Origin: Escherichia coli
GTDB taxonomy: Bacteria; Pseudomonadota; Gammaproteobacteria; Enterobacterales; Enterobacteriaceae
DNA: 64,000 nt
Reading direction: 5' to 3' (one strand)
Assembly: GCF_016903815.1 (NCBI RefSeq)
Contig: NZ_CP069973.1
Each line of letters starts with the position of its first letter. Positions within the stretch are counted from its first letter, which is position 1. Below the pieces are notes generated by a model that was not told the origin of the DNA, did not search any database, and saw only the letters and a list, made by a program, of their open reading frames with translations. Of the stretch, positions 52,925 to 53,056 are shown piece after piece. The translations under genes were made by a program, and so were the position numbers.

Positions 52925-52975
52925 AAGATGTCCTCAATTATTCGGTTTGGGTTAGGGCGTTTTTTGCTATCACCC

Positions 52976-52991
52976 TGTGACGTGGATCACA
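52976..52991. promoter_or_regulatory. Perfect TGTGA-N6-TCACA palindrome in the AKR/LysR divergent promoter (CRP-like site or LysR-associated operator)
   Basis: tgtgacgtggatcaca lies about 50 bp upstream of the AKR start and about 65 bp upstream of the LysR start. Confidence 0.45.
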
Positions 52992-53056
52992 ATACCTTGC
53001 GATGTTGTGACTTGATAGGACATAATTCGTCTGACTTAAGTCCTTTGAGGTCTAAC

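Follow-up and report, generated by a model that had tools for sequence, protein, structure and literature searches.

The cassette and its intergenic region

The window analyzed here, a 64-kb stretch of Escherichia coli DNA, carries, beside a copy of IS1397, a small accessory island that separates nadR from ettA. Within the island lies an uncharacterized cassette in which a LysR-type regulator gene diverges from an operon for an aldo/keto reductase (AKR), an SDR protein, and an SRPBCC protein. The ATG codons of AKR (52924, minus strand) and lysR (53057, plus strand) flank an intergenic gap of 132 bp (52925-53056), which contains a perfect 16-bp palindrome, tgtgacgtggatcaca (TGTGACGTGGATCACA), at 52976-52991. 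The original prediction had described this element as a perfect TGTGA-N6-TCACA in a divergent promoter of 132 bp, and the sequence reads exactly so. The genes and the palindrome are laid out as follows.

50655-51071, minus strand: SRPBCC gene of the AKR-SDR-SRPBCC operon
51097-51894, minus strand: SDR gene of the same operon
51914-52924, minus strand: AKR gene, the first gene of the operon
52973-52994: candidate 22-bp CRP-type site that would enclose the palindrome
52976-52991, no strand assigned: TGTGA-CGTGGA-TCACA palindrome, by its sequence a candidate cAMP-CRP core, with half-sites fixed and spacer free in nine lineages
53057-53944, plus strand: LysR-type regulator gene (295 amino acids), divergent from the AKR operon

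The island is carried by 482 of 5426 complete E. coli genomes (~9%) and is chromosomal in all of them. None of the four cassette proteins reaches the curated NCBIfam cut-offs, and a literature search on the cassette and its protein accessions found nothing, including on binding or expression at the locus. The best partial family matches of the LysR regulator are AlsR, HcaR, GltC, and BenM/CatM-type LTTRs, and its nearest solved structures are 7w06, BenM, CatM, and CbnR. Orthologues with 68-99% identity occur in Klebsiella, Serratia, many Pseudomonas, Paraburkholderia, Caballeronia, Janthinobacterium, and Cupriavidus, and the N-terminal DNA-binding domain is near-invariant from E. coli through Pseudomonas and the Burkholderiales. 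We collected 80 orthologous loci from a genome scan and added Paraburkholderia, Janthinobacterium, Cupriavidus, and three metagenomic relatives. The divergent LysR/AKR order is found nearly everywhere that flanks are available, and tblastn shows that SDR and SRPBCC are mostly present too. The four-gene cassette ranges from Escherichia to Pseudomonas and the Burkholderiales, and it is common in Klebsiella.

The nadR-ettA island of the window (49900-55500) appears decayed. It includes a fragment of an Old-Yellow-Enzyme-type reductase (50051-50236), and the RefSeq annotation of an identical strain places a NadS-family pseudogene and a small DUF1471 gene there. The IS1397 copy, a member of the IS3 family, occupies ~54116-55473, directly after lysR.

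The half-sites of the palindrome are those of the CRP core consensus, as originally claimed, with a match at 10 of 10 positions and a spacer of 6 bp. Read directly against the 22-bp consensus AAATGTGATCTAGATCACATTT, the site matches at 14 of 22 positions; it is flanked by CCC on the left and by ATA, and the left CCC and the GC-rich spacer are what deviate from the longer consensus. The 64-kb window contains two exact matches to TGTGA-N6-TCACA, whereas shuffles that preserve dinucleotides predict 0.07; a count of two came up in one shuffle of 100. Across 716 kb fetched from related loci there are 13 exact matches, every one of which is the AKR/lysR palindrome. The palindrome exceeds chance occurrence. 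The second copy in the window, TGTGATTTATATCACA at 10457-10472, lies between a btsT/yjiY-type gene (8094-10259, minus strand) and tsr (10621-12285, plus strand). It is probably the CRP site of btsT, since the activity of the btsT promoter is abolished in a crp mutant (PMC7730263). The Tsr-like open reading frame itself contains a run of seven glutamines close to its C terminus.

Predicted promoters and likely LysR operator in the gap

We aligned the orthologous intergenic regions by anchoring them on the LysR start, and the right half of the gap proved to be deeply conserved. The alignment, together with promoter scans of the window, yields the following candidate elements.

52989-52994, minus strand: predicted AKR -10, TATTGT, a TAnnnT that 79 of 81 orthologous promoters have at the same place
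52997-53002 and 53021-53026, plus strand: lysR promoter from a consensus scan, with -35 TTGCGA, an 18-bp spacer, and -10 CATAAT
53009-53021, no strand assigned: ABS-like half of the LysR block, GAC-N7-GAC, at about -27 to -39 of the AKR promoter
53013-53018, minus strand: weak AKR -35-like hexamer, CTATCA, with an 18-bp spacer, inside the ABS-like box
53033-53053, no strand assigned: RBS-like half of the LysR block, (G)ACTTAAGTC-N5-AGGTCT, at -51 to -71 of AKR and +1 to +21 of lysR

The lysR promoter is the sole promoter-like match that the consensus scan returned in the region, and both of its hexamers are kept in all taxa. Judged from these hexamers, transcription of lysR would start at ~53033. 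The promoter scan found no consensus sigma-70 promoter on the minus strand of the gap, as is expected of an activator-dependent promoter. The TAnnnT hexamer sits exactly 2 nt past the lysR -35 on the AKR strand, and it comes in 13 variants (for example, TATTGT, TAATGT, TATCTT, TATATT, TAGGAT, TAGTAT, TAAACT, and TAGACT). The equivalents of A-11 and T-7 (T52993 and A52989 of the window) are invariant in every taxon. The compact regions of Burkholderiales and Pseudomonas offer no -10 candidate other than TAnnnT upstream of the ribosome-binding site, and the AKR -35-like position in these groups reads TTGGAC.

Cupriavidus offers a natural rearrangement of the same elements. In this genus, AKR-SRPBCC and lysR run in one direction, and the promoter/operator box is duplicated (positions 1435-1784 and 3255-3500 of locus L088), with a copy at each place where the regulator would have to act. 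The copy upstream of AKR retains TAGACT, GTCCAAGAC, AACTTAAGTC, and AGGTCT, but at the lysR hexamers it has degenerated to ATCGCA (-35) and CGGAAT (-10). The copy upstream of lysR retains TTGCAA, CATGAT, AAGTTAAGTC, and AGGTCT and has lost the TAnnnT hexamer. On our reading of the hexamers, each copy retains just those that are needed at its place. A relic of the lysR start, AGGTCTTAATATG, is still borne by the copy upstream of AKR.

We place the AKR -10 at 52989-52994, with a predicted start near 52982, because of the recurrence of TAnnnT in 79 of 81 promoters, the invariant A-11 and T-7, and the duplicated box of Cupriavidus. As mapped here, the AKR and lysR promoters interdigitate. The palindrome had been said to sit centrally in the divergent promoter; it does lie inside the gap, but its position can be refined to the predicted -10/+1 region of AKR, where it would span about -9 to +7 with its center at approximately -1.5, and to -49.5 from the predicted lysR start.

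A second conserved feature of the gap is the block at 53009-53053, which is found from E. coli to the Burkholderiales and extends over the -10, start, and leader of lysR. Conservation is at least 95% over 76 distinct promoters for the ABS-like box and likewise at least 95% at GAC 53009-11, GAC 53019-21, AGTC 53039-42, and AGGTCT 53048-53; the axis of symmetry lies at 53030.5, with GAC triplets at 53009 and 53019 on one side and GTC triplets at 53040 and 53050 on the other. In Cupriavidus, the RBS-like half is present in both copies of the box, while the ABS-like half is kept upstream of AKR and degraded upstream of lysR. A canonical LTTR has its primary site near -65, overlapping the promoter of its own gene, with secondary contacts towards -35 (PMC4834489). 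The block fits the geometry of such a divergent promoter, extending from -27 to -71 and overlapping the lysR start, and its part at 53033-53053 coincides with the primary-site position, unlike the palindrome at approximately -1.5. It differs from the canonical arrangement in consisting of four GAC/GTC triplets: a single T-N11-A dyad was sought and is not obvious, and only the symmetric GAC-N7-GAC ... GTC-N7-GTC could be described.

The block is likely the LysR operator, because it is conserved alongside a near-invariant DNA-binding domain in every clade. The palindrome lies outside it and is not co-conserved with that domain across the orthologues. The suggestion that the palindrome could equally serve as the LysR operator is not supported: most orthologous promoters lack it despite the near-invariant domain, and 53009-53053 is what they conserve instead.

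Conservation of the palindrome

The original prediction called for a search for the same palindrome in orthologous promoters, and the element does recur, but only within one enteric clade. Its carriers are E. coli alleles, E. whittamii, Trabulsiella, Yokenella, a Klebsiella metagenome-assembled genome, Raoultella, Yersinia frederiksenii, and one unassigned enteric contig, so that the exact palindrome is limited to Escherichia, Trabulsiella, Yokenella, Klebsiella, Raoultella, and Y. frederiksenii, all of them Enterobacterales. It is absent from the promoters of Serratia, Ewingella, Xenorhabdus, and Acinetobacter, from those of ~60 Pseudomonas species, and from the three betaproteobacteria Paraburkholderia, Janthinobacterium, and Cupriavidus.

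Within the clade, the arms and the spacer behave differently. Among 10 distinct sequences from nine lineages, all 10 half-site positions are invariant and one of the six spacer positions is; the hypergeometric probability that 11 invariant positions of 16 include all 10 half-site bases is 0.0014. The spacer is fixed at 6 nt and occurs in six versions (CGTGGA, TGTGGA, CGAGGA, CGGAGA, CGGCGC, and CGGAAA). In the AKR and LysR genes on either side, only 12.9% of four-fold degenerate sites show no change across eight of the palindrome-bearing taxa; neutral sites are close to saturation, and the neutral probability (p^10) of ten invariant positions is ~1e-9. Identity to the window at four-fold sites is only 32-49% in Yokenella, Klebsiella, Yersinia, and Raoultella, and by this measure the cassette is old within the clade. 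Invariant arms around a free spacer of fixed length point to a DNA-binding dimer that would contact two half-sites of 5 bp through two major grooves; the arms of an RNA hairpin would covary. We therefore consider it very probable that the palindrome has been kept by selection as the site of a dimeric protein, and the description of it as a defined candidate control element is borne out by its conservation.

Two spacer alleles deserve mention on their own account: TGTGATGTGGATCACA in E. coli WP4-S18-ESBL-07 (L083) and TGTGACGGAAATCACA in Logan SRR5229476 (L090). The former widens the symmetry to 6+6 (TGTGAT/ATCACA), nearer the full CRP consensus.

On the AKR strand, the left arm reads GTCAC and is similar to leader sequence of Pseudomonas and Paraburkholderia, and A52989 of the right half-site is accounted for by the AKR -10 hexamer alone. 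Part of the palindrome may thus be older and retained for another reason, and the element looks like an overlay on an older promoter, produced by a small number of changes in its discriminator region.

These overlaps also bear on whether the palindrome is a protein site at all, rather than an RNA or DNA hairpin or a stretch constrained only as promoter and initial transcribed sequence. The right half-site shares 3 nt with the AKR -10, the left half-site overlaps leader sequence similar to that of other clades, and RNA of the palindrome could fold into a small hairpin with a stem of 5-6 bp (-4.2 kcal/mol). The predicted AKR start falls inside the palindrome, however, so that AKR mRNA could not hold both arms, and sigma-70 contacts leave the invariance at -9, -8, -6, and -5 unexplained. 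The arms are invariant and do not covary, unlike the adjacent hairpin of the AKR leader, which is listed here.

52955-52975, minus strand: predicted stem-loop of the AKR leader, GGGUG-loop-CGCCC, directly downstream of the palindrome

This stem-loop (GGGNN-loop-NNCCC) is predicted in all eight enteric taxa, with compensatory changes that yield the stem pairs GGGCG/CGCCC, GGGUG/CGCCC, GGGCA/UGCCC, and GGGAU/AUCCC. The palindrome has no Rfam match and is not listed by the terminator scan. A hairpin or terminator was rejected on these grounds (a start inside the palindrome, invariant arms, a weak fold, and no Rfam or terminator match), and we regard the absence of any protein site as very improbable.

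Candidate binders and possible regulatory consequences

The binder of the palindrome is probably the host's cAMP-CRP. To our knowledge, CRP is the only well-known factor of Enterobacterales with this consensus, and Enterobacterales, the order of all palindrome-bearing hosts, are known to encode it. No regulator gene beyond lysR is common to the palindrome-bearing loci, so that a cassette-encoded second regulator could be dismissed and a global factor of the host is indicated instead. CRP is favored among such factors because the palindrome is identical to the core consensus, all hosts are enterobacteria, and no extra regulator gene accompanies the site. The same TGTGA-N6-TCACA consensus is common to the CRP proteins of Yersinia pestis and E. 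coli (PMC3050693), and we count in favor of CRP that the only other palindrome in the window lies upstream of btsT, a CRP-dependent gene. It counts against CRP that Serratia, Ewingella, and Xenorhabdus have the protein yet lack the palindrome. Their lack of the site implies that catabolite control would be an add-on to the cassette rather than intrinsic to it.

The conservation pattern as such reveals only dimeric binding, and the identity of the binder is read from the motif, which leaves room for another dimeric regulator of the host, such as a LacI/GalR-type or an unknown factor. Such a regulator would have no gene common to the palindrome loci other than lysR, and the spacer is asymmetric, variable, and without the central CG typical of LacI-family operators. 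A LacI/GalR operator would be a fully symmetric palindrome of 14-20 bp around a central CG, with its repressor encoded close by; the full symmetry, the CG, and the gene are all absent here. We judge this explanation decidedly improbable.

If CRP is the binder, the position of the site bears on its effect. In vivo and genome-wide, activating Crp motifs cluster at -41.5, -61.5, and -93.5 (PMC5957442). The palindrome, at approximately -1.5 from the predicted AKR start and -49.5 from the predicted lysR start, matches none of these positions, which makes repression the likelier effect of bound CRP. Repression by CRP is documented for sites that overlap the core promoter or are located downstream of it, cyaA being one example (PMC3050693). 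Activation is the effect of most CRP sites, and the AKR leader of the enteric clade is longer than elsewhere (~58-76 nt versus 25-39 nt) and could conceal a second promoter; the palindrome might accordingly activate either the lysR promoter or an unrecognized AKR promoter farther downstream. Class II activation of the latter would need a -10 at ~52949-52954, where the clade has TAACCC, GAACCC, GAACTG, and TGCCTG and no conserved TAnnnT, and it was rejected for want of a conserved -10 at that distance; class I activation would place the start within the AKR coding sequence. With -49.5 from lysR being none of the observed activating positions, an activating CRP site strikes us as improbable. For repression of the AKR promoter as the net effect of the palindrome, we put the chances at slightly short of even.

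The most serious alternative to CRP is that the palindrome is a third, promoter-proximal LysR site, of the ABS' or BenM "site 3" type, which would shut AKR off without inducer. BenM and CatM are among the closest solved relatives of the LysR regulator; BenM has a site near -12, and the third site of BenM/CatM overlaps the -10 and represses without inducer. Secondary sites of LTTRs can be occupied and repressing when free of effector (PMC11739112). The half-site centers of the palindrome are 11 bp apart, a distance compatible with an LTTR dimer, and its place near the -10 is compatible with a secondary site. The sequence and its distribution argue otherwise. The three sites of BenM share one recognizable half-site, whereas the half-sites of the palindrome are unlike the deeply conserved RBS-like box and match the CRP core exactly, a match that would have to be a coincidence. 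The DNA-binding domain is near-invariant in all clades, but the palindrome is missing from most, and an even dyad of 16 bp cannot hold T-N11-A in register. TGTGAC does recur 30 bp away in the ABS-like box of E. coli, but this second copy is not kept, Klebsiella and Yersinia having TATGAC and TAGGAC. We hold a third LysR site to be an unlikely explanation, and a variant in which the CRP-like palindrome serves LysR as a third site in this clade alone, so that LysR and CRP compete for it, is less likely than the recruitment of CRP as a direct repressor that is proposed below.

The recurrence belongs to a direct repeat, TGTGACGTG/TGTGACTTG (52976-52984 and 53006-53014, 30 bp apart), whose second copy, TGTGACTTG, overlaps the ABS-like box. 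The repeat was considered as the sign of a common binder and set aside, as the second TGTG is not kept in Klebsiella and Yersinia.

Returning to cAMP-CRP as the binder, a mechanism can be proposed from the map. The AKR -10 would overlap the right half-site, and the AKR start near 52982 would coincide with the center of the palindrome, so that CRP bound over ~22 bp (52973-52994) would block RNA polymerase at the AKR promoter. High cAMP would then lead to CRP occupancy and to repression of the AKR operon. LysR, from the adjoining operator at 53009-53053, would activate the AKR promoter and repress its own. The full statement, that cAMP-CRP occludes the AKR promoter from a site particular to this clade, seems to us about as likely to hold as to fail. 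We advance only tentatively, and think rather unlikely, the further proposal that CRP was recruited in one enteric lineage as a direct repressor acting at the start of an LTTR-activated reductase operon. If it were true, the cassette would be inducible mainly at low cAMP, that is, under carbon excess, when reactive carbonyls such as methylglyoxal accumulate.

The nearest known parallel is the cAMP-CRP repression site over a core promoter, as at cyaA, where the -10 is covered; like it, the palindrome places TGTGA-N6-TCACA on the -10/+1 region, with occlusion predicted (PMC3050693). It differs from cyaA-type sites in that the AKR promoter would also be under a divergent LysR-type activator and that the site is restricted to a clade, with binding, start, and sign all predicted here. 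Class I and class II CRP promoters, such as lac and galP1, have a core motif identical to that of the palindrome, but here the position is not -41.5, -61.5, or -93.5, and for class II no suitable conserved -10 exists at AKR. The core of the lac CRP site is TGTGA/TCACT, and the palindrome is thus a better core match than lac.

The palindrome is most likely a well-defined but ordinary control element, a candidate example of a familiar type of site, and no current concept is challenged by it. What the promoter map adds for an uncharacterized accessory cassette, with its LysR regulator, AKR, SDR, and SRPBCC, is a separation of three layers: a putative ancient LysR operator, two predicted interdigitated promoters, and global catabolite control possibly superimposed in one lineage. 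Should CRP indeed act as a repressor at this site, the locus would be a further example of regulon rewiring through a few point changes at a promoter, and it would hint at a role of the cassette in carbon excess or electrophile stress.

The AKR leaders of other lineages carry hairpin-like sequences of their own. In Pseudomonas (L017-L081), a GGTCA-N(2-7)-TGACC with a variable loop is conserved just downstream of the predicted AKR -10; the hairpin is formed by the sequence that resembles the left arm of the palindrome, and its location suggests that the repeat is a 5'-terminal hairpin of AKR mRNA. The Klebsiella, Y. frederiksenii, and Raoultella leaders (L006, L007, and L008) contain a hairpin-like insertion of ~15-20 nt, TTCCCG...CGGGAA, which is absent from those of Escherichia, Trabulsiella, and Yokenella.
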